DNA from: an uncultured Gammaproteobacteria bacterium
GTDB lineage: Bacteria > Patescibacteriota > Patescibacteriia > Magasanikbacterales > GWA2-37-8
Direction: 5' to 3'
Assembly (NCBI GenBank): GCA_964624315.1
Contig: CAZUWJ010000001.1
Location: forward strand, 21,160-85,159
Length of the DNA: 64,000 bases
Shown piece after piece: positions 18,319 through 63,261 of this stretch. Positions within the stretch are counted from its first letter, which is position 1. Each line of letters opens with the position of its first letter. The notes beneath the pieces were generated by a model. That model saw only the letters and a list, made by a program, of their open reading frames with translations, was not told the DNA's origin and ran no database searches. The translations under genes were made by a program, and so were the position numbers.

Positions 18319-18440
18319 TGTCATCCCGAGCTTGTCGAGGGATCTTTCTTGGTACTTACTTATAAATAGCTACACAAAAAGATTCCTCCACTCCGCTCTG
18401 CCCCTCCTCCTCGTCGGGACGAGCTACGGTCGGAATGACA
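18319..18440. repeat. MITE-like palindromic repeat, GC-rich-core subfamily
   Basis: Termini TGTCATCCCGAG ... CGGAATGACA. Internal GC-rich segment CCGCTCTGCCCCTCCTCCTCGTCGGGACGAGCTACGGTC is shared with 22626..22762 and, in reverse complement, with 53420..53547. Confidence 0.7.
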
Positions 18441-18509
18441 ATTTATTTGAGGCTTTATTTTGTAAAAAAACTTGATACACACTCAAACTAATATAATTAT
18501 ATCATAGAA

Positions 18510-18539
18510 TTGACAAAAGACCAATAATTTTGTATAATG
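18510..18539 (+). promoter_or_regulatory. sigma70-like promoter upstream of the tRNA-Leu / GIY-YIG locus
   Basis: TTGACA, 18-bp spacer, TATAAT, followed by hairpin CTGCCtctctGGCAG. Confidence 0.45.
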
Positions 18540-18634
18540 TAATGGCAAAATTAAGCAATCTGCCTCTCTGGCAGACAAAATAAATAAAAAAATTAATTTT
18601 GACTCTGAAAAATTACGTCAACTTATATTATATA

Positions 18635-18697
18635 TATTAGAACTAATGCTTCGAAAAACGTTAATAATATAAGCCGAAGTGGTGAAACTGGTAGACA
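18635..18697 (+). repeat. partial duplicate of tRNA-Leu(CAA): 27 bp of upstream sequence plus tRNA nt 1-35
   Basis: 63 bp matching 19012..19074 with two mismatches. Homology ends inside the anticodon (..CGACTCA|). It is followed by two hairpins (18698..18760) and the AAGGAG SD of the GIY-YIG gene. Confidence 0.75.
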
Positions 18698-18786
18698 CGC
18701 ACGACTCACCCCAAGCAGAGCAAAGCTCGCTTTGGGGTGTCCCAAACTGAGCTTTGCTCTAGTTGGGACAAAATCTAAGGAGAATT

Positions 18787-19038
18787 ATGTATTATGTATA
18801 TATATTAAAACTTTCAAATAATGATCTATATACTGGTAGAACAAACGACCTAAAAAGAAGGTATAATGAACATTTAAATAAAAAAGTAAAATCAACAGGT
18901 AAATATTGCCCATTAAAATTACTGCATTATGAAGCGTTTCTAGATAAAGAAGATTCTGTGAGAAGAGAAAACTATCTCAAAACTAGTACTGGCAAAAGAA
19001 TGTTAAAACTAATGCTTCGAAAAACATTACTAATATAA
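18787..19038 (+). CDS. small GIY-YIG nuclease-domain protein (URI/YhbQ-like)
   Basis: MYYVYILKLSNNDLYTGRTNDLKRRYNEH fits GIY-x10-YIG plus the conserved R and H/N. An AAGGAG SD lies 6 nt upstream, so 18787 is preferred over the track start 18763. The last 9 codons lie inside the repeat shared with 18635..18661. Confidence 0.7.
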   Translation: MYYVYILKLSNNDLYTGRTNDLKRRYNEHLNKKVKSTGKYCPLKLLHYEAFLDKEDSVRRENYLKTSTGKRMLKLMLRKTLLI

Positions 19039-19120
19039 GCCGAAGTGGTGAAACTGGTAGACACGCACGACTCAAAATCGTGTGGAGCAATCCTTGAGGG
19101 TTCGAGTCCCTCCTTCGGCA
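19039..19120 (+). tRNA. tRNA-Leu (anticodon CAA), class II with long variable arm
   Basis: Acceptor GCCGAAG/CTTCGGC, anticodon stem CACGA/TCGTG with loop CTCAAAA, long variable arm, T-arm GAGGG-TTCGAGT-CCCTC, discriminator A. Confidence 0.85.
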
Positions 19121-19190
19121 CAAGACCTACGGACGATAAACCCTCCTTCGGCACAAAACCCACTTTAACAATAGGGGTATCAATAACCTA

Positions 19191-20171
19191 TTGATACCGT
19201 ATCGATACCCTATGAACTACCTTCACATAATAATTTACGGTTTGACAGCTCTGGCCGTCTTTTTAATTTTTGTTTTTTTAAAAGATACTAAAAATCCAAA
19301 AACTTTTGCTTCAAAAAATAAAAATTTAACTTACGTTTTGATAGCTTTTTTGCTTACTATCTCTTTTGCTGGATTATATACCAGATTCATAGAACCAAAC
19401 ATTTTAATTACCAAAACTCAGTCTATAGATTTATCTAACATGGAGCAACCAATCAAAATATCTTTTATAGCTGATATACAAATCGGCAAATATAAAAAAG
19501 AAAAATGGATGAATAAAATAGTTAAAGAGGTAAAAAAAATAAAACCTGACTTAATACTATTTGGCGGGGACCTAATTTCTAATGAAGGCACGCTGGACGA
19601 TATTAAATATTTAGATACCCTATCTATTTTAACAAAAAACTACCCAACTTACTACATATTAGGAAACCATGAATACGGCTTGGGAGGGATGAACATTTCT
19701 CCAAACAAAAGCACTGGGGACAGAAGCTTAGAAACTATTCTACAAATGAATAAAATCGGAGCTAAATTACTAAGAAACAACTTCGATTGTTTAAGCTTAA
19801 ATAATCAAAAGCTTTGTTTATTTGGCATAGATGATTTATGGGGAGGGGAAATAAATTTTGAAGAATTAAAAAATTGGGATAAAAATGCAACCTTAATATA
19901 TTTAACTCACAATCCTGATGGCATATCCTACTGGCCAAACGATATTAAAAAACCAGATCTAGTTTTGTCCGGCCATACTCACGGAGGTCAAATTTATTTG
20001 CCAATTATTGGACCACTTGGCAATCCAGATGTAAAACTACCAAAAAAATATTGGAGAGGACTAAATTACTTTGACGATATTCCGCTCTATACTTCTTGTG
20101 GGGCCGGAGAATCAGGGGCAAACATACGCTTTCTTACTCCGCCAAGCATTGATGAAATAATATTAAAATAA
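19191..20171 (+). CDS. membrane-anchored calcineurin-like metallophosphoesterase
   Basis: N-terminal TM segment, then FGGDLIS, GNHEY and SGHTHGGQI metallophosphatase motifs. Confidence 0.6.
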   Translation: MIPYRYPMNYLHIIIYGLTALAVFLIFVFLKDTKNPKTFASKNKNLTYVLIAFLLTISFAGLYTRFIEPNILITKTQSIDLSNMEQPIKISFIADIQIGKYKKEKWMNKIVKEVKKIKPDLILFGGDLISNEGTLDDIKYLDTLSILTKNYPTYYILGNHEYGLGGMNISPNKSTGDRSLETILQMNKIGAKLLRNNFDCLSLNNQKLCLFGIDDLWGGEINFEELKNWDKNATLIYLTHNPDGISYWPNDIKKPDLVLSGHTHGGQIYLPIIGPLGNPDVKLPKKYWRGLNYFDDIPLYTSCGAGESGANIRFLTPPSIDEIILK

Positions 20172-20196
20172 AAAATGTAGTCCTAAATAATCTGCT

Positions 20197-20248
20197 GTCA
20201 TCCTGAGTGAAACGAAGGATCTAGATTCTTCGATACCTCAGAATGACA
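20197..20248. repeat. MITE-like palindromic repeat, short 52-bp form
   Basis: TGTCATCCTGAGTGAAACGAAGGATCT / AGATTCTTCGATACCTCAGAATGACA near-perfect palindrome between convergent genes. Confidence 0.7.
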
Positions 20249-20324
20249 ACACCATACTCAACATGACGGCTATAAAAAAATCAACGAATTAATTCGTTGA
20301 TTTTTTTATTATTTTATTTTAATA

Positions 20325-21620
20325 TTAAGGTCTCAACCTAGTAATAGTTCTTGGGAATGGAATACACTCACGAATATGTTCTACCCCGGCTATCCAACGC
20401 ACCGTTCTTTCTAGTCCAATACCAAATCCGCTATGAGGAACACTACCATATTTTCTTATATCCAAATACCATTTAAAATCTTCTAAATTTAGATTATCTT
20501 TTTTAATTTTTTCTAACAAAAGATCATAATCATCTTCACGCTCGGAACCACCTATCAATTCACCTGACCCCTCTATCCCTATCAAATCACTATTCAAAAC
20601 AATATCTGGGTTCTCCGGGTCTTCTTTCATGTAAAATGGCTTAATACTCTTGGGCCATTTTTCAATAAAGACAGGTACATCACTATCCTTTGTTAATAAT
20701 CCCTCATCATCATTTCCCAAATCTTCTCCATATTTTATATCACTCCCAAGTTCATTTAATTTTTTAATCGCTTGAGTATAGGTTAACCTGGTAAAATCTT
20801 TTTCTACAACTATTTGCAAAGGTTTAATATCTCTTTCTAAAACTTCTAATTCTTTCTGGCAATGTTCTAAACAATATTTAGCAATATACTGCACTAAGCC
20901 TTGTTGAATATCCAAATTTTCATCGTGCCCAATAAAAGCAGCTTCAGCGTCCATCATCCAAAATTCAGTCAAATGTCTTTTGGTTTTACTTTTTTCAGCA
21001 CGAAAAACTGGACCAAAATCGTAACAGCGCCCAACTGATTGTACGGCAGCCTCTAAATACAACTGACCTGACTGAGACAAATAAGCTTGTCCTAAATCAA
21101 AATAATCAACTGAAAAAAGAGTAGTTGTGCCCTCACAAGCATTGGGAGTAAAAATTGGAGAATCAACTTTTATAAAATCTTCCTTATGCAAATATTCATT
21201 AATAGCCATAATAACGGCATCTCTAACGCGTAATATCGCCCACTGTTTGGAGCTACGAAGCCATAGATGACGATTGTCCATTAAGAAATCAGGCCCATGT
21301 TCTTTGTTGGCTATTGGATAGTCTACGGAATCACTAATTACTTTAAAATTTTGCATTTGTAATTCATAAACTCCTGGTTTTTTGGGATGTTCCACTACTT
21401 TACCAACCGCTTCTACCGAGCACTCCTGTGAGCTTTGTTCTATTTGAGCCCAGCCGTCTTCACCCACATCGTTTAAACTAGCAACTCCCTGAACAAAACC
21501 AGTCCCATCACGCAACTCTAAAAAAGCTATCTTACCAGACGATCGTTTATTATAGAGCCAGCCTTTTATTTCGACTATTTCCCCCACATACTCGCTTAAT
21601 TTTTCTATATATACATGCAT
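20325..21620 (-). CDS. asnS: asparaginyl-tRNA synthetase
   Basis: Class IIb aaRS. N-terminal OB anticodon-binding domain, motif 2 FRAEKSKTKRHLTEFWMMDAE, and C-terminal YGSVPHSGFGIGLERTV, which is AsnRS-like rather than AspRS GxPPHGG. Confidence 0.75.
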   Translation of the reverse strand: MHVYIEKLSEYVGEIVEIKGWLYNKRSSGKIAFLELRDGTGFVQGVASLNDVGEDGWAQIEQSSQECSVEAVGKVVEHPKKPGVYELQMQNFKVISDSVDYPIANKEHGPDFLMDNRHLWLRSSKQWAILRVRDAVIMAINEYLHKEDFIKVDSPIFTPNACEGTTTLFSVDYFDLGQAYLSQSGQLYLEAAVQSVGRCYDFGPVFRAEKSKTKRHLTEFWMMDAEAAFIGHDENLDIQQGLVQYIAKYCLEHCQKELEVLERDIKPLQIVVEKDFTRLTYTQAIKKLNELGSDIKYGEDLGNDDEGLLTKDSDVPVFIEKWPKSIKPFYMKEDPENPDIVLNSDLIGIEGSGELIGGSEREDDYDLLLEKIKKDNLNLEDFKWYLDIRKYGSVPHSGFGIGLERTVRWIAGVEHIRECIPFPRTITRLRP

Positions 21621-21656
21621 ATTTTATAATTTACTATTTTATTAATCTTAACAAAA

Positions 21657-22220
21657 TTAACTAAAACTTTCAAGGCTTGCCCAATCCCCCATATCGTATT
21701 CTAATACACCTCTTACTTTTTCATAAATAAGTTTATGCTGTAAAACTCTGTTGTGATCAGACCATTTTTTGATATCCGTACTAAAATCATACAACCCTAA
21801 CACTTTGAGAAACTTTATAAAAAATAAATCAATAATCTTTGTTTTATCTTTCAAATTATTTTGTTCTAAATATGTTAAAAAATCATAGAGTAATTTAAAT
21901 AACTCTTCATCTCTATGCTGTTCTTTGACGGTTTTACCAAATACTTTAATAACAAACTTTACCACCAATATTTTATCAAAATTTGTCCGAATATTTTTAT
22001 AATATTCTAAACCCAGAACTTTAGTTACACGATTAAATTCTTTTCCTTTTTCTATATCAATCTCTACAAAAGAACACGGCTCCAGATAGGCCGCATTTTT
22101 TGAAACTATTTTTTTAGCACCCGTAGCTATTGCCTCTATTTTTCCTTGCTCTAAAGTATAAAGACTGATAGATTTATCATTTTCTCTAAAATCACGACAG
22201 GACAAAATTATACCTAACAT
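21657..22220 (-). CDS. recO: DNA repair protein RecO (short form)
   Basis: N-terminal OB-fold pattern MLGIILSCRDFRENDKSISLYTLEQGKIEAIATGAKK ... AAYLEP resembles RecO. Adjacent to ruvX. Weakly supported. Confidence 0.45.
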   Translation of the reverse strand: MLGIILSCRDFRENDKSISLYTLEQGKIEAIATGAKKIVSKNAAYLEPCSFVEIDIEKGKEFNRVTKVLGLEYYKNIRTNFDKILVVKFVIKVFGKTVKEQHRDEELFKLLYDFLTYLEQNNLKDKTKIIDLFFIKFLKVLGLYDFSTDIKKWSDHNRVLQHKLIYEKVRGVLEYDMGDWASLESFS

Positions 22221-22227
22221 ATTTAAA

Positions 22228-22599
22228 TTATTTCCTATTTTTACTTACTAAAAAAGATTCCAAAATAACCATTGCTGATTTTTCATCTCTTGTTGCTATC
22301 CCACCCATTACATCTGCCTGCTGAGAAGAAAATCTCTCATCATAAAACTCTAAGGGCGCTTGAATTTCTTTTTTTAATTTTTCAGCAAACTTTCTTACTC
22401 TTTTTGCATTGGCCTGCTCTGTACCATCTAATCCTAAAGGCAAACCCAAAACAACCTTCTCAACCTTTTCTTCTTTTATTACTTTTACTATATCATCTAA
22501 GCTATGAACTACTCCAAAAGGCAAAACCACCCCAATATCTGTATCAGACCAGGCTAAACCAAAATTTTTTGTACCAAAATCAATTCCTAGAATATTCAT
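22228..22599 (-). CDS. ruvX: Holliday-junction resolvase-like YqgF/RuvX
   Basis: MNILGIDFGTKNFGLAWSD ... VVLGLPL RNase-H-like signature. Confidence 0.8.
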   Translation of the reverse strand: MNILGIDFGTKNFGLAWSDTDIGVVLPFGVVHSLDDIVKVIKEEKVEKVVLGLPLGLDGTEQANAKRVRKFAEKLKKEIQAPLEFYDERFSSQQADVMGGIATRDEKSAMVILESFLVSKNRK

Positions 22600-22625
22600 A
22601 AACGCTAAATCTAAAATAATACACC

Positions 22626-22762
22626 GTCATCCTGATCCGCCAAATGGCGGAGAAGGATCTTTACTACAGATTACATACAAAAAAGTAATGATAGCAACTA
22701 AAGATTCCTCCACTTCGCTCTACCCCGCCTCCTCGGCGGGTTGAGCTACGGTCGGAATGACA
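22626..22762. repeat. MITE-like palindromic repeat, GC-rich-core subfamily
   Basis: CGTCATCCTGATCCGCCAAATGGCGGAGAAGGATCT ... CGGCGGGTTGAGCTACGGTCGGAATGACA, homologous to 18319..18440. Confidence 0.7.
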
Positions 22763-22767
22763 ACGGT

Positions 22768-23601: not shown

Positions 23602-23602
23602 A

Positions 23603-24265: not shown

Positions 24266-24322
24266 AAATTTGATTTTTTCCGCTTAAATTAGGCAAAATT
24301 AGTATAACATAAAGCTAGGGGC

Positions 24323-24351
24323 TTGACAAGAAGGTTAAAATGTGGTATAAT
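24323..24351 (+). promoter_or_regulatory. consensus sigma70 promoter of lipoprotein cassette 1
   Basis: TTGACA, 17-bp spacer, TATAAT. Confidence 0.55.
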
Positions 24352-24616
24352 AATCTGTTAAATAAATACTGTTAGAGAGAGCGGTATTTTACACAAAACT
24401 CTTGTTTTATGTAAAATTCCCCTCTTTATCCAAGAGGGGTTTGTTCTTTAAAATTAAGGGTTATTTAAAAAGATTTGTTGTTTTCTTCCTAGCTATTGTT
24501 CTAAGCATTTATTTACTAAATACTTATTGGTAAATGGATGTTTAGAACAATAACACTGACAGTGCTTAGTGCCTAGCTTAGGGCCTTATAAAGTAAGTAG
24601 GAACAATGAGAAGACC

Positions 24617-25186
24617 ATGAAAAATTTTAAAACCATAGCAGGAGACCTGGCCTTCCTAATGGCCATCGCGATTTTCACCGCCACCTTCATGGGGTGTGGC
24701 GATGGTATTAGCGAAATCATGACCCAAGAAGACCTAATGGAAGGTATTGTGCCTTCTTTTGGCGATGGTGTCATGACCTCCCTCCCAGAGGGTTATTATG
24801 GACAGGTGTTCGCCTGTTACGACACCCCACACACTGATCGGATTCAAGATCCCTCCAATGTCCTTTTCGAGAATAAAAACTTGAAAGGATACTACGACAA
24901 GTGGTCTGGAAAGGTTTACCTCCAGAAAAAAGACGGGGAACAAAACAAAATCGTAATACAGTGTAGAGGGGAAGAAGTGCAAGAAGTGCACTATGTTGCC
25001 GAAGCATGGGAGGGACGATCCTCCGGAAGTATGAAATGCTACTACATCGTCGACGGCTGTCGTAACACGGAAAACATCTGTTTCCGCTACGAACAAGACG
25101 GAAGCAGCTCCACCACTTTCTCTCCAACAACAGCCCGAAGGGCTGAGTTGGATAGCCTTTGTATGGGCTTCCAAAATTTCAAATAA
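24617..25186 (+). CDS. GC-rich secreted cysteine-rich lipoprotein (hypothetical), paralog A
   Basis: Start MKNFKTIAGDLAFLMAIAIFTATFMGCG (signal peptide plus lipobox). About 50% GC, 10 Cys. Antisense six-frame ORFs 24734..25174 and 24771..25130 are artefacts. Confidence 0.5.
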   Translation: MKNFKTIAGDLAFLMAIAIFTATFMGCGDGISEIMTQEDLMEGIVPSFGDGVMTSLPEGYYGQVFACYDTPHTDRIQDPSNVLFENKNLKGYYDKWSGKVYLQKKDGEQNKIVIQCRGEEVQEVHYVAEAWEGRSSGSMKCYYIVDGCRNTENICFRYEQDGSSSTTFSPTTARRAELDSLCMGFQNFK

Positions 25187-25205
25187 CCCTTTTTTCTCTT
25201 ACTAC

Positions 25206-25242
25206 CCCTCGGCACAATTCGTGCTTGGGGGTGTTTTTTTTA
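25206..25242 (+). terminator. rho-independent terminator of cassette 1
   Basis: CCCCTCGGCACAATTCGTGCTTGGGGG plus a T-run. Near-identical to the terminator at 25899..25931. Confidence 0.6.
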
Positions 25243-25259
25243 TTATCCTTCTATCCCCC

Positions 25260-25289
25260 TTGACAAAACCCTGAAAATATGATATAATA
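25260..25289 (+). promoter_or_regulatory. consensus sigma70 promoter of lipoprotein cassette 2
   Basis: TTGACA, 18-bp spacer, TATAAT. Confidence 0.55.
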
Positions 25290-25453
25290 GCTTGTTGTAA
25301 AAACTGTTCTTTAAAATTAAGGGTTATTTAAAAAATACAATCATTCCAAGAAGATTAAAGCTAATACATTGGCTTTGGTTTTCTTGGAATGATACGAAAA
25401 TTGGAACGAACCTATTGACGCTCACCGTGGAACGGTGGGCAGGAGAATGAACA

Positions 25454-25891
25454 ATGCAACTCATGGCCAAAGCTACGATGTTTGCCATTCTTATTTCTAT
25501 TTTCGCAATCGCCTTTGGGGGTTGCGGACATGAAGAAACATGGGATCAAGATGCGACCCTGCCCATCCAATCCCTCTTAGAAGAAGAAGGGGGCTGGATA
25601 GGTATGGGTAGTAATGAGCTTGACCAAACGATTTATTATAAAGATGCATACTACCACTTTGAGAAGGGAGACCAGCATCTCAAGGTGAAGTGTTATCCTC
25701 TAAAATATAAGGGTAAGCTCAACCACCTCTTTAATTACCTCGTATACACGCCCAGAGGGGAAGACGAACGCGAGGAGTTTATTTTTTGTGAGGGCCTACT
25801 GCCATGTAGGTGGCAGCAACATGACTTTAACGTCCGGTTTTATCTAAAACCAGGCACAAGGGCCATCCTGGAAAATATCTGTTCAATGTAA
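25454..25891 (+). CDS. GC-rich secreted cysteine-rich lipoprotein (hypothetical), paralog B
   Basis: MQLMAKATMFAILISIFAIAFGGCG signal peptide plus lipobox. AGGAGA SD. Shares the ENIC motif and Cys spacing with paralog A. Confidence 0.5.
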   Translation: MQLMAKATMFAILISIFAIAFGGCGHEETWDQDATLPIQSLLEEEGGWIGMGSNELDQTIYYKDAYYHFEKGDQHLKVKCYPLKYKGKLNHLFNYLVYTPRGEDEREEFIFCEGLLPCRWQQHDFNVRFYLKPGTRAILENICSM

Positions 25892-25898
25892 TAACCCT

Positions 25899-25931
25899 TT
25901 TTCTTACCGCCCCCGGCACAGTTGTGCTGGG
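25899..25931 (+). terminator. rho-independent terminator of cassette 2
   Basis: CCCCCGGCACAGTTGTGCTGGGGG plus a T-run. Confidence 0.6.
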
Positions 25932-25964
25932 GGTATTTTTTTATTAACTGCTAATTAAAACAAA

Positions 25965-26232
25965 CTGTCATCCTGAGGAACCGAAGGATCTAATACCACA
26001 GCTCTAGATCCTTCGATTCCTCAGGATGACAATGCCCTACCTAGAAAGATATTGTACCACAGCTCTAGATCCTTCGATTCCTCAGAATGACAATGCCCTA
26101 CCTAGAAAGATATTGTACCACAACTTTAGATTCTTCTCCGCCACCCGGCGGATCAGAATGACAACACTCCCTTTGTAGGTAGGCAAACCCGCTTTCGCGG
26201 GGATAACACTATATTTTTTGTTTAATATAAAA
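25965..26232. repeat. tandem array of MITE-like repeat units and half-units
   Basis: One full palindromic unit, then two tandem roughly 60-bp units ATGCCCTACCTAGAAAGATATTGTACCACAGCTCTAGATCCTTCGATTCCTCAG(G/A)ATGACA, then two degenerate units ending in AGAATGACA and CCCGCTTTCGCGGGGATAACA. Confidence 0.7.
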
Positions 26233-26372
26233 TAAAGAAACTATAGTTTTAACTACAGTTTAAACTATAGTTTCTTTTACTCTTAAAATTTAAAAACCTC
26301 TCCGTAAAGAAAGGTTTTTTATTTGATTATTAGATCCTTCGGTTCCTCAGGAGGACAATGCTACAAGAAAAT

Positions 26373-35985: not shown

Positions 35986-36807
35986 TTATTTACTTTCTTC
36001 AACTGCCTCAGCCTTAGCTTCAGCTGGTTTTTCTGCCACAACTTCATCAGAAGCAGGGACTTTTTCTTCTTCTTTTTTTACCCCAGTACTAGACTCTTTG
36101 CCAGCTGGCAAATCGTCAGTGCGGGACTTCGCTTCGCTCGCTTCCTGTTTTTCTTGTTTAATTTTCAAATCGCCTTCAGCAAAAATTTCTAAATATCCTT
36201 GTTTTGCACCTGGAACAGCTCCTCTAACATACAAGGCATTATCTTCAAAATCGATTTTTATAATTTCTAAATTTTTAACAGTAACTTGATCACCACCCAT
36301 ACGTCCGCCCATTTTCATACCTTTGAAAACTTTTTGTGGACCAGTAGCACCAATTGAACCAGGCATTCTATTTTGATGTTTTTGACCATGTGATGCTGGG
36401 CCACATTTAAAATTATAACGTTTCATAACACCAGCAAAGCCTTTTCCTTTTGAAACACCAGTAATAGCGATCTTTTCACCCTCAACAAAAGCACTCAAAT
36501 CTACATAATCACCCTTTTTAAAACTATCAGTTTTTTCAACTTTAAATTCTCTTAATCTTCTAACTGGTTCCAAATCTTTCAAATGTCCTGATTTTGGTTT
36601 GTTTAAACGAAAACTTTTGGTTTTTCCGAAACCAACTTGAAGGGCATTATCTTTAATTTGTGTTATTTGACACGGACCAGCTTGAACTTTGGTAACAGCA
36701 ACTGCTTCACCATTATCTTTGAAGATCTGTGTCATGCCTAATTTTTTACCTAAAATAAATTTCATATTTTTTGCCATTGGTCCAATAGGACTTAACTTTT
36801 TTAACAA
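35986..36807 (-). CDS. rplC: 50S ribosomal protein L3 with roughly 70-aa acidic/K-rich C-terminal extension
   Basis: L3 core KKLGMTQIF ... FKCGPASHGQKHQNRMPGSIG. True start is probably an internal Met (about 36765-36777). The C-terminal tail carries the repeat shared with rpsA. Confidence 0.85.
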   Translation of the reverse strand: MLKKLSPIGPMAKNMKFILGKKLGMTQIFKDNGEAVAVTKVQAGPCQITQIKDNALQVGFGKTKSFRLNKPKSGHLKDLEPVRRLREFKVEKTDSFKKGDYVDLSAFVEGEKIAITGVSKGKGFAGVMKRYNFKCGPASHGQKHQNRMPGSIGATGPQKVFKGMKMGGRMGGDQVTVKNLEIIKIDFEDNALYVRGAVPGAKQGYLEIFAEGDLKIKQEKQEASEAKSRTDDLPAGKESSTGVKKEEEKVPASDEVVAEKPAEAKAEAVEESK

Positions 36808-43583: not shown

Positions 43584-43792
43584 GGTCTCTCTCCTGCTCC
43601 TAGGTTGGATAGGTTGGGTCTGAATAAAAGCTTTGTTTAATTATTTTTAACATAAATTGTAAATAAAGTCAATATTAATAAGAGGGGTTTTAAATAACCA
43701 AATCAAAAAACCTGCCATTACAGCAGGTTTTTTGATTTAAAGTATTTTTTCATCGTTCGCCATAGCTTTAAAGCGAAGGCGAATTTTCCATA

Positions 43793-45175
43793 CTACTTCT
43801 CTTCCCCAACACTAGACTCTTCGTCAGTGTGGGACTTCGCTTCGCTCGCTTTTACTTCAGCCTCTGGTTCTTCTACTTTAGTTTCCTCTTTTTTCTTTTT
43901 TTTCTTTTCTTTCTTCTCTTTTTTTACTTCAGCCTTTGGCTTTTCTTCCCCGACACTAGACTCTTCGCCAACTGGCAAATCGTCAGTGTGAGACTTCGCT
44001 TCGCTCACTTTTTCAACTTTCTTTTCTTTTACTTCCTTTTCTTCCTTGTCCGCAGTAACTTTAGCGGAGGTGGATTTGCCTTTTACTCCTGCCAAACGAA
44101 GACCTAATCTGTGTTCAGCTGGCTCCATTGAAACTATTTCAAAATCTAGTTCTTGTCCAATTGTGAATTCTTTATTAATATCACCCATCGGTTTATTTGA
44201 TAGTTCACTAACATGAGCTAAGCCATGGATATCACTGTCTAGCGCTACCATCAAACCAAAACCTTCAACTTTCAAAATCTTTCCTTTTACCACACTACCT
44301 ACTTTATATTTTTCTTTTACACCTTTCCAAGGATCTTCAACATTTCTTTTGATAGATAGATAAATTTTTGATTTATCAAGTTGAATAATTTGAGCTTTTA
44401 CTTTATCGCCTACTTTCAAAATATCTCTTGGGTGATCAATTCTTTGCCAAGCGATTTCTGAAATATGGACCAAACCTTCTAAACCTTCGCCGAAACGAAT
44501 AAAGGCACCAAATGAAGTTAGAGCATTTACTTCGCCCTCTACAACATCGCCTACTTTATAAGATTCTAACACAGCTTTTTGAGAATCTTCCCAAACAGCT
44601 CTCTCAGATACTATTAATTTTTCATCATTTTCATCAGCATCAATCACTTTTACTTCTACTTCTCCACCTATTAAACTTTGTAATTTTTCTAAAATTCTAT
44701 TTTTATCTCCACCTGAAACACGAGGATAGTTTTCTGGACTTAATTGAGAAACAGGCATAAAACCTGACAAAGCATCAACTTTCATCATTAAACCACCTTT
44801 ATTAGCTGCTAAAATCTTAGCTTTAACAGTCAAACCGTCTTTCATTAATTTTTTAACAGCGTCCCAAGCACGCTTAAACCCAGCAATACGGAAAGAAAGT
44901 TCCATCTCACCATTTTCATTTTCTGATTCTATTACTGTGGCTTCAGCTTCAGTACCTACTTTCAAATCTGTATATTCACTTGATTCAGCAAATAACTCTG
45001 GTCCACGAACAACACCAACAGTCATACCTTCAATATCAAGATGAATTTGACCTTTTTCAACACTAATAATATTACCTTTAACAACATCACCAACTTTTGG
45101 TAATTGGTTAAAAAAGTCTTTTAGCAGATCTTTAAAATCCTCTGCTTTTTTGTCTAATATTTTGTCTTCAGACAT
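43793..45175 (-). CDS. rpsA: 30S ribosomal protein S1 (four S1 domains) with K/E-rich repetitive C-terminal tail
   Basis: Repeated S1/OB motifs (GDVVKG ... , GDVVEGEV ... , GSVVKGKI ...). The tail contains two copies of the SEAKSHTD(D)(LPVG)EESSVGEEK repeat. Confidence 0.85.
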   Translation of the reverse strand: MSEDKILDKKAEDFKDLLKDFFNQLPKVGDVVKGNIISVEKGQIHLDIEGMTVGVVRGPELFAESSEYTDLKVGTEAEATVIESENENGEMELSFRIAGFKRAWDAVKKLMKDGLTVKAKILAANKGGLMMKVDALSGFMPVSQLSPENYPRVSGGDKNRILEKLQSLIGGEVEVKVIDADENDEKLIVSERAVWEDSQKAVLESYKVGDVVEGEVNALTSFGAFIRFGEGLEGLVHISEIAWQRIDHPRDILKVGDKVKAQIIQLDKSKIYLSIKRNVEDPWKGVKEKYKVGSVVKGKILKVEGFGLMVALDSDIHGLAHVSELSNKPMGDINKEFTIGQELDFEIVSMEPAEHRLGLRLAGVKGKSTSAKVTADKEEKEVKEKKVEKVSEAKSHTDDLPVGEESSVGEEKPKAEVKKEKKEKKKKKKEETKVEEPEAEVKASEAKSHTDEESSVGEEK

Positions 45176-46690: not shown

Positions 46691-46692
46691 AT

Positions 46693-49166: not shown

Positions 49167-49203
49167 CAAATAAAAAATACATATCCGCCAACTGGCGGAT
49201 ATG
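49167..49203 (+). terminator. rho-independent terminator after gyrA
   Basis: ATACATATCCGCCAACTGGCGGATATGTAT hairpin plus T7. Confidence 0.6.
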
Positions 49204-49238
49204 TATTTTTTTTAGTTGTATTATAACGTGACGTTCAC

Positions 49239-49317
49239 TGTCATTCCCGCGAAAGCGAGAATCCAGAAACGTTTTATTGGTAAATTCTCCTGGATCCCCG
49301 CTTTCGCGGGGATGACA
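49239..49317. repeat. MITE-like palindromic repeat, CCCGCGAAAGCG-core variant
   Basis: TGTCATTCCCGCGAAAGCGAGAATCCAG ... CTGGATCCCCGCTTTCGCGGGGATGACA. Confidence 0.7.
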
Positions 49318-50750: not shown

Positions 50751-51803
50751 CTAAAACATCCTTCTCACTTTTCTCAAAAATTTGTAAAACAAATACTTTT
50801 TATTATTTAAGATAATATCCACTGTTCCTGCGTCTTCTTTATATTCTCCTCCAAACCCAAGTTTGAATCTAGTTACACCAGCGTATTGATGGTCTTTGTT
50901 ATATTCAAATTCTTTTTTAGATCCTTCGCTCCGCTCAGGATGACAAGAGGGCTCAGGATGACAAGAAAAGTCAGGATGGCAGTTAACACAAGGCGCTATC
51001 CCAAAAAAATCATAATATTTATAACCCAACTCTTTACCAAACTTTATTGCTCCCCATTGTAGTAAATTCGGAGCCATTAACTTCCTATATTCATAATCAG
51101 ACGCCCCATAAAGATAGGTAAAAGTATCGCCAAAGCCAATAAATACGCCTGTCGCCACTACCCCGTCATCTTTATAGGCATTTAACTGGTAACTCAAATC
51201 AAATTCTAAAATTTCTTTATAATGTTTTTTATCATGCAGTCTAAAACCATCTCTTTGTCCAGTTTCTTGCATCAAATTAAAAAATTTATCAAAATCTTTT
51301 TCTTTTTTTACAACCACACCTTTCCTTTCAGACAATCCAATATTATACCTAGTCTTTGAATGCATGTTTTGCAAAATTTCTTCTTCATTTTTTGATATAT
51401 CTAATACTAAAGTAGACTTAGGATTAATATCTTTAGAAAATATAAATTTAAAATCCGAAGCCTGTATTTGCTCTTTTGGTTCAATACGTAAAAATATACA
51501 CTTTTTTTCTATAAAATAATCACTCAAGGTTCTCAAAACTTCTGTTTTCTCATCATCACCATCAATAAAAACAGGGCCTTTGGGACAAAAAGCATATTTT
51601 AATCCAAAAAACAGATCACTATACACAACCTGACATTCAGCTTTTATCTCCTCACCATCTAAAACCGCTAACCTTTCCACTTTTTTACCTTCATTTTCTA
51701 AAATTTTACCCCATCTTGAGCTTTGAGAAAAAGAAGAAAAACAGCTATTTTCTACTAGCCATTCATCCCAGCTGTCATTATTTTGTATTTTTTTAACTTC
51801 CAT
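50751..51803 (-). CDS. FemAB/FemX-family peptidoglycan branch aminoacyltransferase-like protein with in-frame repeat insertion
   Basis: Fem-like N-terminus (FSQSSRWGKI). The central segment CVNCHPDFSCHPEPSCHPERSEGS is encoded by a MITE end at 50919..50981. Confidence 0.5.
   Translation of the reverse strand: MEVKKIQNNDSWDEWLVENSCFSSFSQSSRWGKILENEGKKVERLAVLDGEEIKAECQVVYSDLFFGLKYAFCPKGPVFIDGDDEKTEVLRTLSDYFIEKKCIFLRIEPKEQIQASDFKFIFSKDINPKSTLVLDISKNEEEILQNMHSKTRYNIGLSERKGVVVKKEKDFDKFFNLMQETGQRDGFRLHDKKHYKEILEFDLSYQLNAYKDDGVVATGVFIGFGDTFTYLYGASDYEYRKLMAPNLLQWGAIKFGKELGYKYYDFFGIAPCVNCHPDFSCHPEPSCHPERSEGSKKEFEYNKDHQYAGVTRFKLGFGGEYKEDAGTVDIILNNKKYLFYKFLRKVRRMF
50919..50981. repeat. MITE-like repeat fragment (three tandem CTCAGGATGACA termini) embedded in coding sequence
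   Basis: AGATCCTTCGCTCCGCTCAGGATGACA AGAGGGCTCAGGATGACA AGAAAAGTCAGGATGGCA on the plus strand. Translated in-frame on the minus strand as the CHPx repeats. Confidence 0.7.
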
Positions 51804-53419: not shown

Positions 53420-53547
53420 TGTCATTCCGACCGTAGTCCGCCGAAGGAGGCGGACGAAGCGGAGGAATCTTTCTGTATAATTACCAAAAAAGATCTCTCC
53501 ATTTCGTTCGTATCCACTCACTTCAGTCGAGATGACAGTATTATCAC
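53420..53547. repeat. MITE-like palindromic repeat, GC-rich-core subfamily, inverted orientation
   Basis: TGTCATTCCGACCGTAGTCCGCCGAAGGAGGCGGACGAAGCGGAGGAATCTT ... CAGTCGAGATGACA is the reverse-complement form of 18319..18440. Confidence 0.7.
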
Positions 53548-54805: not shown

Positions 54806-55042
54806 GTGAACACTATGCCACCTAAGAAAAAACCAGCAAAAAGAAAAGTAACTAAGAAAAAAGTTGCTAAAAGAAAAGTTACAAAAAGGAAACCGGCTAA
54901 AAAGAAAGCTGCTCCTAAAAGAAAAGTAGCTAAGAAAAAACCGGCAAAGAAAAAAGCTGCTAAAAGGAAACCGGCTAAAAAGAAAGCTGCTCCTAAAAGA
55001 AAAGTAGCTAAGAAAAAACCGGCTAAACGTAAGAAAAGATAA
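54806..55042 (+). CDS. histone H1-like lysine/alanine/proline-repeat nucleoid protein
   Basis: 78 aa, more than 50% K/R. Tandem KKKPAKKKAAPKRKVAKKKPAKRK repeats. GGAGGTG SD. Own terminator at 55056..55091. Confidence 0.5.
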   Translation: MNTMPPKKKPAKRKVTKKKVAKRKVTKRKPAKKKAAPKRKVAKKKPAKKKAAKRKPAKKKAAPKRKVAKKKPAKRKKR

Positions 55043-59486: not shown

Positions 59487-59509
59487 AAATTTAATTTTTA
59501 ATTTCTAAT

Positions 59510-59989
59510 TTATTTTAAACCCATTTCAAAAGCTTTTTTATTTTCTTCCCAGTTTGGTTTTGTGGATAATTTTTCTTCCAAAAGTTTAAAAGCATTCTCC
59601 AATATATCAATTTTATTTTCTTTTAATTTTTTTAAAATTACCCCTAGAAAAAATATATTAAAACTAAACAATGAAATACTTTGTTCTTTTAGTCTATCTT
59701 TAAAATCTAAAATATCTATTTTTTCTGTTTTATCTCCGATATAATTTTTTATTCTTTCTCTCGCTTGGTCTGACAAAATTAAAACAACATCAGCCTGGCT
59801 AAATTTTGGATAGACAATCTCATCTTCTGAAATTTTTATAAAAGATAAAGAGACGCCACCTCTTTGTTCCAAGCCATAATTTGGAATTTGCATGATATCC
59901 AAACCACTCTCAAAAACACTGTTCGATAAAATCTTTGAAATAAGTTGTACACCTTGTCCGCCGTCTCCGGCAAGTAAAATTTTTAACAT
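59510..59989 (-). CDS. 2-oxoacid:ferredoxin oxidoreductase gamma subunit
   Basis: MLKILLAGDGGQGVQLISKIL, the POR/KOR gamma-subunit start. Confidence 0.65.
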   Translation of the reverse strand: MLKILLAGDGGQGVQLISKILSNSVFESGLDIMQIPNYGLEQRGGVSLSFIKISEDEIVYPKFSQADVVLILSDQARERIKNYIGDKTEKIDILDFKDRLKEQSISLFSFNIFFLGVILKKLKENKIDILENAFKLLEEKLSTKPNWEENKKAFEMGLK

Positions 59990-60014
59990 AAGTTTATAAT
60001 AATTTTAATATAAC

Positions 60015-60091
60015 TGTCATCCTGAGTGAAACGAAGGATCTTAATTCCGCTACTAGATTCTTCGCTCCACTCAGAATGACAACCTGATTAT
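60015..60091. repeat. MITE-like palindromic repeat, GAACGAAGGATC-core subfamily
   Basis: TGTCATCCTGAGTGAAACGAAGGATCT ... GATTCTTCGCTCCACTCAGAATGACA between the gamma and beta subunit genes. Confidence 0.7.
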
Positions 60092-60771
60092 ATCTCCCCC
60101 AACTTAAACACTTCTTTTAGACTGTTTAATTTATTAATAGTATCTACCCCTTTGGTTTTCCAGTTAGTCGGACACATCGACAATATCTCAACACAAGCAA
60201 AATGACCAGACTTTTGAGTTTCAACTGCTTTTTCAATATAACTTTTTAAATTCCCCACATCATTTACGGCAGTTCTAGCTAAAAATGCTTTTTCACTAGC
60301 TACTTCACGTAAAAGTTTTATACCGTCTAATGGCTCTGCTTCCACACCTTCTGGGGTAGTATCTGTTTTTTGCCCTTTTAAAGTTGTTGGAGCCGTTTGC
60401 CCTCCAGTCATTGCATAAATAGTATTATTAACCACCAAAATTGTAACAGGCTCATCACGCCTAGCTGCCCACAGTAAACTTTGCAATCCAATAGCATAAG
60501 CTCCGCCGTCTCCAGTTAATCCAATGACGGTTGAATCTTTTTTGGCTCTTTTAAAACCCATGATAGTTGGGGTCACCCGACCGTGATGAGTCTGAAAAGT
60601 ATTAATAGGCAAAAAATTCCAAGCCAAAAGTGAACAACCAATATCAAGCCCTAAAACTGATTTTTCTTTTATACCCATATCAGACAAAACTTTTTCTAAA
60701 ATCATTAAAACTATGGGGTAGCCACAGCCAGGACAAAATTTACAGGCACTATTATTTATTTCTTTATTCAT
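60088..60771 (-). CDS. 2-oxoacid:ferredoxin oxidoreductase beta subunit (TPP-binding)
   Basis: CPGCGYP ... GLTGDGGAYAIG ... TPP-binding GDG motif. Confidence 0.7.
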   Translation of the reverse strand: MNKEINNSACKFCPGCGYPIVLMILEKVLSDMGIKEKSVLGLDIGCSLLAWNFLPINTFQTHHGRVTPTIMGFKRAKKDSTVIGLTGDGGAYAIGLQSLLWAARRDEPVTILVVNNTIYAMTGGQTAPTTLKGQKTDTTPEGVEAEPLDGIKLLREVASEKAFLARTAVNDVGNLKSYIEKAVETQKSGHFACVEILSMCPTNWKTKGVDTINKLNSLKEVFKLGEI

Positions 60772-60780
60772 ATTAATTTT

Positions 60781-61806
60781 TTATAAGTTAGAAATTTTAT
60801 CCATAATTTCTTCCGCCTCAATCCCTACGGCTGGTTTTTGTAAATAATGAAAACTAACATTAGAACAATCTTCTATTCCATCTTTGACTAATTTGGACAA
60901 TTGCCCAAAACTTGATTCTACAATTAAAACTTTTTTAACTTTATTTAAATTTTTATTTAAACTCTCGATATCTAACGGTCGCAAAGTTATAGGACGCCAT
61001 AGTCCAACTTTTTTATTCTCTTTTCTTAATTTTTTTACAGCTAATTTAGCCGCTGCCCCGACTATACCGTGAGCAATAATTAAAATTTCAGCGCCCTCTG
61101 TTTCAAATTCTTCAGACTCCACAACTTCAACTGACATCTTTTCAAAATCCGATTTTGTTTTTTCTAATTCCTCAAATAATTCTTCTTCAAAAGTAAAAAT
61201 ATTCCTCCAATGTTTTATTTCCCCTTCTTTAACCAAAGGATATGGTTTTTCATTTTCTAAATTTTCAAACTTAGAAAAATCGACCACTCCTTTTGTTTTT
61301 AAAAGATAACCATCAGTCAAAATAATAGTTGGAAACCTATATTTCCAAGCATTGTTAAACGCCAACCGAGCCATAAAATATAGTTCTTCCAAATTAGAAG
61401 CAGAATAAACCAGGCGCATCCCTTCGCCGTTACCACCATAACAAGCCAGCGTAACTTCTTGTTGAGAATAAATCACCGTACCAGAAGAAGGTCCACCTCT
61501 TTGAGCCACAACTGTTACGAACGGCAAACGCATCCCTTCGGCCATAGACAACCCGTCCTGCATCAAAACATGACCTGGGCCAGCAGTAGCTGTAAACGTT
61601 TTTTGCCCAGCAATAGCCGCTCCACACACAGCAAAGCCAGCCGCTATTTCATCTTCGGTCTGTAAATATTTTTTACCACTCCCAATCCAGCCAGTAAAAA
61701 CTTCTGTCCCCGGGGTTATGGGATAACCATACATCATCTCTGCCCCAGCGTCTATTACTCCTCTGACTACGACTTCGGAGCCAGTTAAAAAATGTTTTTT
61801 ATTCAT
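60781..61806 (-). CDS. 2-oxoacid:ferredoxin oxidoreductase alpha subunit
   Basis: GYPITPGTEV ... transketolase-like Pyr domain. Forms a 3-gene operon with the beta and gamma subunits. Confidence 0.7.
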   Translation of the reverse strand: MNKKHFLTGSEVVVRGVIDAGAEMMYGYPITPGTEVFTGWIGSGKKYLQTEDEIAAGFAVCGAAIAGQKTFTATAGPGHVLMQDGLSMAEGMRLPFVTVVAQRGGPSSGTVIYSQQEVTLACYGGNGEGMRLVYSASNLEELYFMARLAFNNAWKYRFPTIILTDGYLLKTKGVVDFSKFENLENEKPYPLVKEGEIKHWRNIFTFEEELFEELEKTKSDFEKMSVEVVESEEFETEGAEILIIAHGIVGAAAKLAVKKLRKENKKVGLWRPITLRPLDIESLNKNLNKVKKVLIVESSFGQLSKLVKDGIEDCSNVSFHYLQKPAVGIEAEEIMDKISNL

Positions 61807-62569
61807 ATTTTTTTAAATCATTAGCTTTTTGTAATTCTTCATTTGTATTTATGCCACACCACTCGGCCGAATCTTTTAATTCTACCAAATTAGTTTTTTC
61901 ATTTTGTCTGTTAGCTATATCAACCATGCTTGGCAAACCATATTCTCCTAAACCCGGTATCGCTCCAATTTTTTGATAATTGGCCTCAAACCAGTCTCTC
62001 TCAAATATAAATGTGCCAGTAGAAATCTCTTTTATTTTTTTATCTTCATCACTTAAATTTTCTTTTTCTTTAATCTCAAACCTACCACCCTTTTTCAAAA
62101 CTCGTCCATATTGATGATATTGTAAATTATCAGCTATTTCTGAAATTAATAAAGTCAAAATAGCTCCGGAATCCAACTGTTTTTCTACCAAATCTTTCAA
62201 AGTATCAACTTTATAAAAAAGGCTGTCGTCCCCTCCTAACACTAAAACATGTTTTATGTTATCTCCTAAAACTTTTATACCTACATAGGCTGCGTGGGCA
62301 GTTCCTAGTCGTTCCTCTTGAAAAGCGTAAGTTACTTCACTGCCAAAATAATCAACTACCTTTTCTTTTTTAAAACCTATTACCAAACAAATTTGTTCAG
62401 GAGTCAAACCTAAACCTTTTAAAGTTTCTATAGTATAATAAACCATCGGCTTACCCGATACTTCTAACATTACTTTTGGTTTGTCCACGCAATTCAAGCG
62501 AGTCCCTTTGCCAGCTGACAAAACTACTGCCCCTAAATTTTCTAAATTAATGACTGACATACTCTGCAA
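61799..62569 (-). CDS. sugar-phosphate nucleotidyltransferase (NTP_transferase fold)
   Basis: AVVLSAGKGTRL ... VDKPK signature of GlmU/RmlA-like nucleotidyltransferases. Confidence 0.5.
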   Translation of the reverse strand: MQSMSVINLENLGAVVLSAGKGTRLNCVDKPKVMLEVSGKPMVYYTIETLKGLGLTPEQICLVIGFKKEKVVDYFGSEVTYAFQEERLGTAHAAYVGIKVLGDNIKHVLVLGGDDSLFYKVDTLKDLVEKQLDSGAILTLLISEIADNLQYHQYGRVLKKGGRFEIKEKENLSDEDKKIKEISTGTFIFERDWFEANYQKIGAIPGLGEYGLPSMVDIANRQNEKTNLVELKDSAEWCGINTNEELQKANDLKKYE

Positions 62570-63176
62570 TATCTAGTAAATTATAAAAATACGGTAGGCG
62601 CGCTAAATCATATTTAACTTTTAAAACATGCTCATTGGCTTTTATAACAGTTCTTAATTTAGTATAAATTCTATTCATTTGAACCGCCTGCTTTATTTCA
62701 TTGTCTATAAACCAAACATGTTTATCTTCAGTTTTTTCTAAAAGTTCACCAATGACATGCTGTTTGGTATCATCAACAAAAAACAATCTATCAAAATATT
62801 TATCTACCCCAGACAATTTTACTTTAAACTCTTGAAAGCTAGGCTCTCCCAAACTTAAAAGTACCAAACTATCACCTGTTTGTTTTAATTTTTCCAAAAA
62901 ATTAAATACTTCAGGAAATAATATTTCTGGCATTTTTTTATTAACTTCATCTAATTTTGCTAAAACTTCTTTTTTTACAAAACCATATTTATAATGCAAA
63001 ATATCAGCATGACGTTTATCGCAGTATGTTGAAATATTCTCATCATCGTAACGCGCCTCACTATAGGAATTCCAGTAAATTTCTTCGCTCACACCTAAAG
63101 ATAACAAAGCTTTCATTCTTTCTTTTTTGAATTTCTGCGTATCTAATAAAGTGTCGTCAAAATCTATAATATACAT
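62547..63176 (-). CDS. HAD-superfamily hydrolase
   Basis: Motif I MYIIDFDDTLLDT (DxD) at the N-terminus. Confidence 0.5.
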   Translation of the reverse strand: MYIIDFDDTLLDTQKFKKERMKALLSLGVSEEIYWNSYSEARYDDENISTYCDKRHADILHYKYGFVKKEVLAKLDEVNKKMPEILFPEVFNFLEKLKQTGDSLVLLSLGEPSFQEFKVKLSGVDKYFDRLFFVDDTKQHVIGELLEKTEDKHVWFIDNEIKQAVQMNRIYTKLRTVIKANEHVLKVKYDLARLPYFYNLLDIAEYVSH

Positions 63177-63194
63177 ATTTATAATTCATGATTT

Positions 63195-63261
63195 TGTCAT
63201 CCTGAGTGGAACGAAGGATCTAACAACGTACTTAAAATTCTTCGCTCCACTCAGAATGACA
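63195..63261. repeat. MITE-like palindromic repeat, GAACGAAGGATC-core subfamily
   Basis: TGTCATCCTGAGTGGAACGAAGGATCT ... ATTCTTCGCTCCACTCAGAATGACA. Closest relative of 60015..60091. Confidence 0.7.

Follow-up and report, generated by a model that had tools for sequence, protein, structure and literature searches.

Tagged hairpin repeats in a Magasanikbacteria genome and their probable kinship with the targets of Ssn nucleases

What kind of element scatters short palindromes through the spacers of a small bacterial genome, and which protein would spread it? The question is raised by a stretch of 64,000 nucleotides (hereafter the window) of contig CAZUWJ010000001.1, assembly GCA_964624315.1, which has a GC content of ~33% and encodes proteins whose best matches are in Patescibacteria, chiefly Candidatus Magasanikbacteria. 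[quoted passage not shown] We find that the repeated entity is a self-contained hairpin unit of 26-62 nt that starts with the tag TGTC. The units are probably DNA hairpins of the CGTC/TGTC-tagged repetitive extragenic palindrome (REP) type, of the same class as the NTS/SRM hairpins recognised by Ssn nucleases, and include dimers spread by Ssn.

Hairpin units of the window

All ten of the listed places hold the repeat, and the family is dispersed, palindromic and mostly intergenic, as first described. When up to two mismatches were allowed, TGTCATCCTGAG was matched 18 times in the 64-kb window where 2.29 matches were expected, and shuffled sequences never gave more than 7. In total 21 units and two half-unit fragments were counted (Table 1). 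A relaxed scan of the whole window for the tag and closing stem found no convincing copies outside 18.3-63.3 kb, and both the 1-18 kb part and the ribosomal-protein operon (27-49 kb) are free of units. Between 18 and 64 kb the density is ~1 unit per 2 kb, rather than the one per 6 kb given earlier. Some limits also had to be redrawn. The copy at 26330-26362, which had been taken for a fragment, is a complete single unit (26331-26357) with a mutated tag, and the places that begin at 53420 and 60015 end at 53537 and 60081, not at 53547 and 60091.

Each unit is built in the same order: the TGTC tag, a stem strand AT-xyz, an inner hairpin, the returning strand x'y'z'-AT, a C and a tail. The stem opens with A-T and T-A, followed by three variable complementary bases and, in most units, by a GA...GA step (tandem G.A/A.G); at the 3' end the closing stem is followed by the C and then by a tail of 2-3 nt. 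The tag is TGTC in 19 units, CGTC in one (22625) and TGTT in one decayed unit (26196). Every unit reads tag-AT...AT-C except 26331, which has CT, and minimum free energy folds begin the stem at that AT. Type-iii units end in an unpaired CCA tail, the remaining types in CT(T/A). GTC precedes the palindrome in 20 of the 21 units, the exception being GTT at 26196, and C follows the stem in 20 of the 21, the exception being T at 63236; of 133 units from other genomes, 131 have T next to ATC on its 3' side. The termini stayed conserved once the copies were aligned, as the initial annotation had implied, but the shared 'TIR' is the tag plus the stem base of a REP-like hairpin. In place of three core subfamilies, five or six unit types can be told apart.

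When single units were folded as DNA, 11 of the 12 tested gave an unpaired tag, a stem, an inner hairpin and an unpaired tail. For the short units thermodynamic support was not significant, and covariation was examined in its place. In other genomes the closing triplet is fully paired in 359 of 384 units, whereas shuffled partners gave a mean of 153 and a maximum of 172. Where the search pattern had left the triplet free, 103 of 115 units are paired. At least ten compensatory triplets occur (CCT/AGG, TCC/GGA, CCC/GGG, TCT/AGA, GCT/AGC, TTC/GAA, CTC/GAG, GTT/AAC, GTC/GAC and CTT/AAG). Covariation this strong shows the stem to be selected as structure, with GTCAT, the G.A step and ATC(T) selected as sequence. 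Within the 7-nt loop region little covariation was found, conservation there being mostly of sequence (C...G C). The inner hairpins of the long units U2 and U6 differ from one another in ways that preserve pairing. The units at 49239 and 49292 have a stem of 8 bp and a GAAA loop; the 36-62-nt units add a second inner hairpin, and type-i units reach nine stem positions only when the tandem G.A pairs are counted.

Eight places hold inverted pairs of units with their tags outward and spacers of 0-40 nt. This count was made by eye; a strict finder returned six tags-outward pairs and one direct pair. Three of the eight dimers (at 18319, 22625 and 53420) join two different unit types. There are also single units, a same-orientation tandem run, a decayed unit and a unit inside a gene, and the array at 25966-26163 consists of one left unit followed by three tandem right units with a period of 61 nt. 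In a second, independent assembly of this genome (L001, 99.99% identical) the contig stops at 26022, within this array, as would be expected because the DNA there is multi-copy. Folding z-scores range from -3.1 to -11 for homodimers and from -2.0 to -4.1 for heterodimers. The long hairpins reported earlier for all copies therefore hold for the homodimers; the three heterodimers do not form one long hairpin because their paired units differ in type, and U17 folds poorly when taken alone (z +1.9). When the flanks of the eight dimers were compared, no target-site duplication was found at any of them. By eye, 19 of 20 units have a pyrimidine before the tag, which is the sole regularity of the flanks. 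The spacers that hold the units separate convergent or co-directional genes, apart from a single divergent one. Dispersed and mostly intergenic, the family has the look of non-autonomous selfish DNA, in keeping with the non-autonomous element first proposed.

Table 1. Repeat units and retroelement components of the window. Positions count from the first nucleotide of the window; z, folding z-score; DGR, diversity-generating retroelement.
Feature	Position	Strand	Description
U1	18319..18345	+	short type, TGTC-ATCCC-GA-GCTTGTC-GA-GGGAT-CT; left half of mixed dimer
U2	18380..18440	-	long type ii, TGTC-ATTCC-GA-CCGTAG-(inner hairpin)-GGA-GGAAT-CT; right-hand partner of U1; 91% identical to 22700-22763
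U3	20196..20222	+	type i, CCT-GA-GTGAAAC-GA-AGG; identical to 60015-60041
U4	20223..20248	-	type i; spacerless dimer with U3, in 3' untranslated region upstream of bidirectional terminator 20272-20309
U5	22625..22660	+	CGTC tag; CCT-GA-TCCGCC-AAAT-GGCGGA-GA-AGG; predicted hairpin fold, z -3.8
U6	22701..22762	-	long type ii; z -3.1; pairs with U5 as mixed dimer in the map-ruvX spacer
U7	25966..25992	+	type i; left unit of array; dimer z -10.9
U8	26005..26031	-	type i; first right unit of array
U9	26066..26092	-	tandem copy, 61-nt period (92%)
U10	26127..26163	-	TCT-GA-TCCGCC-GGGT-GGCGGA-GA-AGA; third right unit of array; z -4.3
U11	26196..26215	-	decayed NTS-like unit, TGTT-ATCCCCGC-GAAA-GCGGG..., as read from the sequence
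U12	26331..26357	-	single type i, tag TGTCCT, 15 nt past secY stop; 97% complementary to U7
U13	49239..49264	+	type iii, NTS-like, TGTC-ATTCCCGC-GAAA-GCGAGAAT-CCAG; matches SRM pattern; z -2.7
U14	49292..49317	-	type iii, compensatory variant ATCCCCGC/GCGGGGAT; z -4.8; dimer with U13 beside terminator 49172-49211
U15	50919..50945	-	type i; in frame within FemAB-family gene; encodes CHPERSEGS
Two 'stutter' copies of 5' half-unit	50946..50981	-	18 nt each, TGTCATCCTGAG+6 and TGCCATCCTGAC+6; encode CHPEPS and CHPDFS
U16	53420..53470	+	long type ii; z -3.6
U17	53491..53537	-	type iv, CTC-GA-...-GA-GAG; lies upstream of tRNA-Lys and pairs with U16 as mixed dimer
U18	60015..60041	+	type i
U19	60055..60081	-	type i; dimer with U18 between co-directional genes; z -5.6
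U20	63195..63221	+	type i
U21	63236..63261	-	type i, tail ATT for ATC; dimer with U20, z -7.2; 100% identical to 60057-60081
DGR target gene	1506-2369	-	variable repeat at C-terminal end, 1508-1637
DGR template repeat	2873-3002	+	
DGR bAvd	3043-3390	-	
DGR reverse transcriptase	3414-4463	+	

Units and the ssn gene in other genomes

The commonest unit type can be written as TGTCATCCTGAG-N7-GAAGGATCT, which specifies 21 bases and for which we estimate a chance expectation of ~0.3 matches in the collection of species-representative genomes that was searched. It was found at 120 loci or more, in most bacterial phyla. Among the matches listed are Firmicutes, Bacteroidota, Acidobacteriota, Chloroflexota, Cyanobacteria, Planctomycetota, Verrucomicrobiota, Nitrospirota, Spirochaetota, Synergistota, Proteobacteria, Omnitrophota and four groups of the candidate phyla radiation (CPR), the last as four metagenome-assembled genomes. 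Likewise, TGTCATTCCGACCGTAG, the 17-mer that opens the long unit type, occurs at no fewer than 119 metagenome loci. The copies are accordingly not restricted to the window, the same units being present in nearly all bacterial phyla, and one fetched locus (L276, GC 0.34) packs 16 units of the same types as the window into 17 kb. Pairs in the loci from other genomes are oriented tags-outward in 82 cases, tags-inward in 13 and direct in 25. Carriage by phages is rare: among IMG/VR contigs, 14 hold type-i units and 6 hold ssn. Since identical units occur in different phyla, similarity between copies cannot date activity, and the recent activity suggested earlier is not inferable from it.

A family of nucleases that act on hairpins of this kind, single-domain GIY-YIG proteins of about 90-100 aa of the cd10448 type, has been described. 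The NTS of Neisseria, CGTCATTCCCGCGMAVGCGGGAATCYRG, is bound and cut by SsnA, a 94-aa single-domain GIY-YIG protein, only as single-stranded DNA and in one orientation (Chenal 2025, Nat Commun 16:2388; PMC11893778). The C that follows the palindrome is critical for binding, and the GTC that precedes it is required for cleavage. SsnA cuts a few nucleotides upstream, and changes or extension of the loop are tolerated (PMC11893778). NTS hairpins were shown to be Ssn targets in Neisseria and Wolbachia, ssnA is often flanked by them (NTS-ssnA-NTS) and has homologs across phyla, and the role of Ssn in Neisseria is to limit natural transformation (PMC11893778).

The fetched loci were searched with the GIY-YIG protein that the window encodes and then with a profile, and L276/L277 and L278/L279 were added by look-up. 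This recovered a group of ssn-like genes, here termed canonical, whose products are 90-101 aa long and carry GFTxKY, LVYxE and REKQLKxWxR...NxxWxDL motifs; they are found in L065, L076, L081, L097, L108, L140, L147, L235/L276/L277, L278/L279 and the viral contig L285. Their tie to Neisseria SsnA rests on size, on the flanking motifs and on the positions of the catalytic residues, which are Y5/Y16/E63 compared with Y6/Y17/E64 in published SsnA. Canonical Ssn is common in the CPR, where the named hits include Magasanikbacteria, Berkelbacteria, Parcubacteria and Doudnabacteria.

Units lie within ~60 nt of every canonical ssn recovered. Most of these genes are bracketed in the order unit(+)-ssn-unit(-), with tags outward and a gap of 296-359 nt, which is the geometry of the window dimers with a gene placed between the two halves. 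The sequences correspond as well. A copy identical to the 27-mer U1 flanks canonical ssn in L108 and L235/L276, units related to U17 are present in L235 and L276, and in L278, from a Magasanikbacteria metagenome-assembled genome, the unit-ssn-unit arrangement (ssn at 3980-4279) is followed ~1.5 kb downstream by a dimer (5771-5838) that is near-identical to the 49239 dimer. Because the ends of the ssn cassette match the window dimers in both geometry and sequence, the dimers appear to be cassette ends without the gene.

The association was also approached without regard to gene identity. Across ~1.7 Mb of fetched loci, we screened for adjacent units 180-3000 nt apart whose gap is filled by a single open reading frame (ORF). 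Four of the seven tags-outward cases enclose ssn, the sole gene found tightly held by such pairs; the other three enclose lpxB, surE and a helicase, ordinary genes that lie between two separate dimers. No transposase bracketed by units was found in the same ~1.7 Mb. An autonomous-looking partner with the same ends, of the sort that the initial annotation anticipated, does exist in relatives, but as the 90-101 aa GIY-YIG gene and not as a transposase.

The published SRM pattern, HGTCWYN(0-2)YYVSBRHN(0-5)WNVSBRGN(0-2)RNCYNB, matches the window only at 49239-49266 and 49290-49317, and 16 of the 584 units of the fetched loci. It can be seen that it also misses the units flanking ssn in L065, L081, L108, L076 and L097, which indicates that the pattern is narrower than the family.

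Relatives provide some view of turnover. The dimer at 18319-18440 is missing from the orthologous parA/GIY-YIG spacer of three loci (L122, L123 and L130), and the dimer at 20196-20248 is missing from the same three, which are syntenic there; all of them keep the promoter and the bidirectional terminator around the dimer-less sites. Unit number also differs within a single locus seen in two samples, with three tandem copies next to ssn in L276 and five in L277. Insertion polymorphism among strains, which it had been proposed to look for, was not seen in L135, the only other sample with this genome (99.97% identical): it has the same dimers, that of U18 and U19 being unchanged.

One copy lies in a coding sequence. 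The FemAB-family gene at 50751-51803 carries the in-frame insert CHPDFS-CHPEPS-CHPERSEGS (50919-50981) in a surface loop after FFG[IV]AP. Unit-derived peptides are found in the same loop in 14 of 111 orthologs, from differing unit types and in differing orientations, and some of the inserts are whole dimers (e.g. RCHSEQSEESL...PQDDK). The loop has a median length of 10 residues; P0003, the nearest insert-free ortholog, is 66% identical. This pattern could reflect either repeated insertion at a permissive site or an old insertion that was replaced and lost many times.

A separate observation concerns copies that are reduced to a 5' half-unit, consisting of the tag, the stem, GAG and a few bases, and stand directly upstream of a complete unit. 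They occur in unrelated genomes, at 50946-50981 of the window, L081 4652-4697, L097 1321-1368, L137 and L278 3342-3406, and may be a footprint of unit copying or repair.

Taken together, the data make it probable that the repeats belong with the hairpins recognised by Ssn, the spreading of dimers by Ssn included. The tags-outward dimers would be gene-less derivatives of a unit-ssn-unit cassette, spread in trans by an Ssn-type nuclease that is encoded elsewhere in the genome or was formerly present. Ssn would recognise the single-stranded hairpin and nick it a few bases upstream of the tag, as has been shown in other species. Copies would then persist at tolerant sites, namely 3' untranslated regions (3' UTRs) by terminators, intergenic spacers and one permissive protein loop, and local arrays and half-unit stutters may arise via tandem slippage. 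A step further would be to see in the dimers the non-autonomous version of a mobile element that has a single gene, for a GIY-YIG single-strand nuclease, and whose hairpin family is bacteria-wide. We put this forward only tentatively, as a possibility that the present data leave rather doubtful.

Several points weigh against the Ssn reading. Canonical ssn is absent from the 64-kb window and from ~7.5 kb of flanks; these flanks, of which 6.3 kb extend to the right and 1.2 kb to the left, contain neither ssn nor additional units. The driver, if still present, must lie elsewhere in the genome. The SRM pattern is missed by 19 of the 21 window units, the short type-i units are thermodynamically undistinctive (z about -0.5), and the orientation of single units relative to local GC skew, 71 versus 102, is not robust at strong skew. 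Finally, inverted units would direct cuts in opposite strands, which does not fit the single-strand model of IS200/IS605 elements.

Alternative explanations and neighbouring features

The window has a single-domain GIY-YIG protein of its own (83 aa, 18787-19038), encoded 346 nt from the 18319-18440 dimer, and this could be the cognate nuclease of the units. In addition to its position near units, its size is Ssn-like, it keeps the catalytic Y, Y, R, H and E, and it matches the canonical ssn-like proteins at ~1e-8 to 1e-9. However, it belongs to a distinct clade without GFTxKY and the C-terminal LKxWxR...NxxWxDL, and is about equally similar to UPF0213 proteins (PDB 1zg2, E 8e-7). In Magasanikbacteria the gene is held in the fixed synteny parB-parA / GIY-YIG / tRNA-Leu(CAA) / metallophosphoesterase at loci that have no units, and three more members of the clade, in other contexts, have none either. 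Units are thus seen in none of six independent genomic contexts of the clade, and by our estimate a unit would fall within 350 nt by chance in ~1 in 5 cases at the density of the window. We consider it unlikely that this protein is the cognate nuclease.

The clade itself is CPR-wide and sister to Ssn, and in Magasanikbacteria its gene always stands directly before tRNA-Leu(CAA). The region bears duplications in the window. A second copy of the last 39 nt of the GIY-YIG ORF plus the first 36 nt of tRNA-Leu(CAA) lies 366 nt upstream (18634-18708, 95% identical), two related hairpins follow this duplication at 18709-18770, and the 3' end of the tRNA-Leu (CCCTCCTTCGGCACAA) is repeated at 19141-19156. 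Relatives have the GIY-YIG gene directly followed by tRNA-Leu, without the duplications seen at 18634-19160, and to judge from the sequence these look like a scar of integration or duplication at a tRNA gene.

We next consider that the units might be non-mobile structural elements that serve the host, either as hairpins that stabilise mRNA from the 3' UTR or as terminators. Most copies do lie just past stop codons in convergent or co-directional spacers, a location that the initial annotation had rightly noted. Bidirectional terminators adjoin three dimers (20272-20309, 25909-25934 and 49172-49211); since these dimers sit between a stop codon and the terminator, at least three copies are inside 3' UTRs, and effects of E. 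coli REPs in 3' UTRs have been reported. The earlier suggestion that the units double as terminators was not borne out. None reaches a terminator-like score, they have no T-tails, and separate, genuine terminators stand beside the dimers, that by the 20196 dimer being conserved in L122, L123 and L130. Orthologous sites in relatives function without units, one copy is within a coding sequence, and the RNA form is not bound by SsnA (PMC11893778). A purely host-serving, non-mobile nature is therefore improbable, although a side effect of the units on mRNA, e.g. at 3' ends, is possible and compatible with targets of Ssn. Among Rfam covariance models only tRNAs reach the gathering score in the window, all other matches with E <=1 being chance-level hits of generic hairpins (miRNA). 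A hammerhead-like reading of CUGA...GAA was discarded, as the core is incomplete and Rfam gives no hit.

A REP/REPIN system driven by RAYT (REP-associated tyrosine transposase, IS200/IS605 family) would also yield REP-like hairpins in inverted doublets, and the type-ii units do hold GTAG followed by a hairpin. The 5' tag is TGTC/CGTC, however, and GTAG is found only in the loop region of that one unit type; Di Nocera et al. found no tyrosine transposase with CGTC repeats at its flanks (PMC3733652), the window has no RAYT-like ORF, and the gene bracketed by units elsewhere encodes a GIY-YIG protein. We regard RAYT as a very improbable driver.

Least probable of all is the classic MITE, which would have arisen by deletion from an insertion sequence and would be moved by a DDE-type transposase that binds its 12-bp TIRs: inverted termini, small size, dispersed and mostly intergenic copies and the folding of five of the eight dimers as long hairpins recommend it, but it is largely refuted by the lack of target-site duplications (0 of 8 dimers), by left and right halves that fold independently and are often unrelated beyond tag and stem base, by units that stand alone (26331, 50919), in same-orientation tandem (26005-26163) or in mixed pairs, by the sharing of the same units across phyla, where 97% of prokaryotic MITE copies (cMITEs) are genus-specific (PMC11602168), and by the finding that in the fetched loci it is ssn, and not a transposase, that units bracket.

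Other features of the window were noted in passing. A 2.1-kb insert (24266-26372), bounded on its right side by the hairpin-unit array, separates secY from adk, which are usually adjacent. It contains two ORFs on opposite strands (24569-25186 and 25454-25891) with lipoprotein-like signal peptides and no Pfam match, a higher GC of 0.41, consensus promoters and their own terminator. A diversity-generating retroelement occupies 1506-4463 (Table 1), and all 24 mismatches between its template and variable repeats (24/24) fall at template adenines. Two copies of a 95-nt direct repeat (93% identity) stand on either side of the retroelement region, at 1167-1261 and 4588-4682; its differences are not adenine-specific, and it is therefore not a second template/variable pair. 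At 54815-55040 (+) a small, very lysine-rich ORF made up of 15-nt periodic repeats (PAKRK / KKKVAK) resembles a histone-H1-like basic protein. A 70-nt repeat (TCGTCAGTG[CT]GGGACTTCGCTTCGCTCGCTT...), unrelated to the hairpin family, is found in minus-strand coding regions at 36074-36143, 43782-43851 and 43941-44010, with 60% and 86% identity to the reference copy. Past the right end of the window, at ~2.9-6.3 kb (L134 1-3438), 3.4 kb at the end of the adjoining contig carry no called genes.

The repeats belong to a described class, of which they are an ordinary instance, and should not be reported as a new MITE. The new points are modest: unit variants that the SRM motif misses, a dense presence in CPR genomes, and the FemAB hot spot. 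The missed variants, with a tandem G.A step or long inner hairpins, still bracket canonical ssn. The family (GTC, AT stem, optional G.A/A.G step, free loop, ATC) is much broader than the SRM motif. If the more tentative reading as a mobile element is true, the family would rank among the non-coding sequences most widely shared by bacteria, reaching deep into the reduced genomes of the CPR, and bacteria would possess a class of mobile DNA that depends on neither transposase nor recombinase. In small Patescibacteria genomes the costs and benefits of selfish DNA, and any control of incoming single-stranded DNA, should be easier to study, and the FemAB loop, as a likely natural record of repeated insertion, may be used to examine target choice.

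Relation to described repeat systems

Prokaryotic MITEs such as the Correia elements and Nezha resemble the present family in being short, non-coding and present in many copies with inverted ends. They differ in that the present family lacks target-site duplications as well as a DDE transposase partner, its halves are modular and mixed, single units occur, and sequence identity extends across phyla. The REPIN/RAYT systems and the bacterial interspersed mosaic elements (BIMEs) of E. coli are closer. They too consist of small hairpin units arranged as inverted doublets that are long-lived between genes, and their origin probably lies in the ends of a gene cassette that is single-copy. The tag there is GTAG and the enzyme an HUH Y1 transposase; here the tag is TGTC and the enzyme a GIY-YIG nuclease.

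The CGTC-tagged REPs have been described from five phyla and include dRS3 of Neisseria and RPE-4 and RPE-6 of Rickettsia conorii (Di Nocera 2013, BMC Genomics 14:522; PMC3733652). Their tag is CGTC, often TGTC (or CCTC), their stems of 8-9 bp open with complementary AT and enclose loops of 4-5 nt, and the tail is near CCA. One kind of inverted dimer prevails, homo- and heterodimers and intragenic copies are known, and no associated transposase has been found (PMC3733652). The window units agree with this superfamily in the tag, the A-T/T-A start of the stem, the short 3' tail, the prevailing inverted dimer with its homo- and heterodimers, the location in convergent or co-directional spacers, the in-frame intragenic copies and the lack of an adjacent transposase, none being encoded by the ORFs of the window. 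They depart from it in that the strict combination of 8-9 bp stem and 4-5 nt loop is seen only in type iii, in the 36-62-nt units with an extra inner hairpin, and in their Patescibacteria (CPR) host, the family as traced here being found in many more phyla.

With NTS/SRM and Ssn there are differences and likenesses. The published pattern misses 19 of the 21 window units, and the window is without canonical ssn. On the other side, the critical GTC and C are kept in all units but those at 26196 and 63236, the units at 49239 and 49292 are nearly NTS itself, and the NTS-ssnA-NTS layout recurs in the CPR loci L276-L279.

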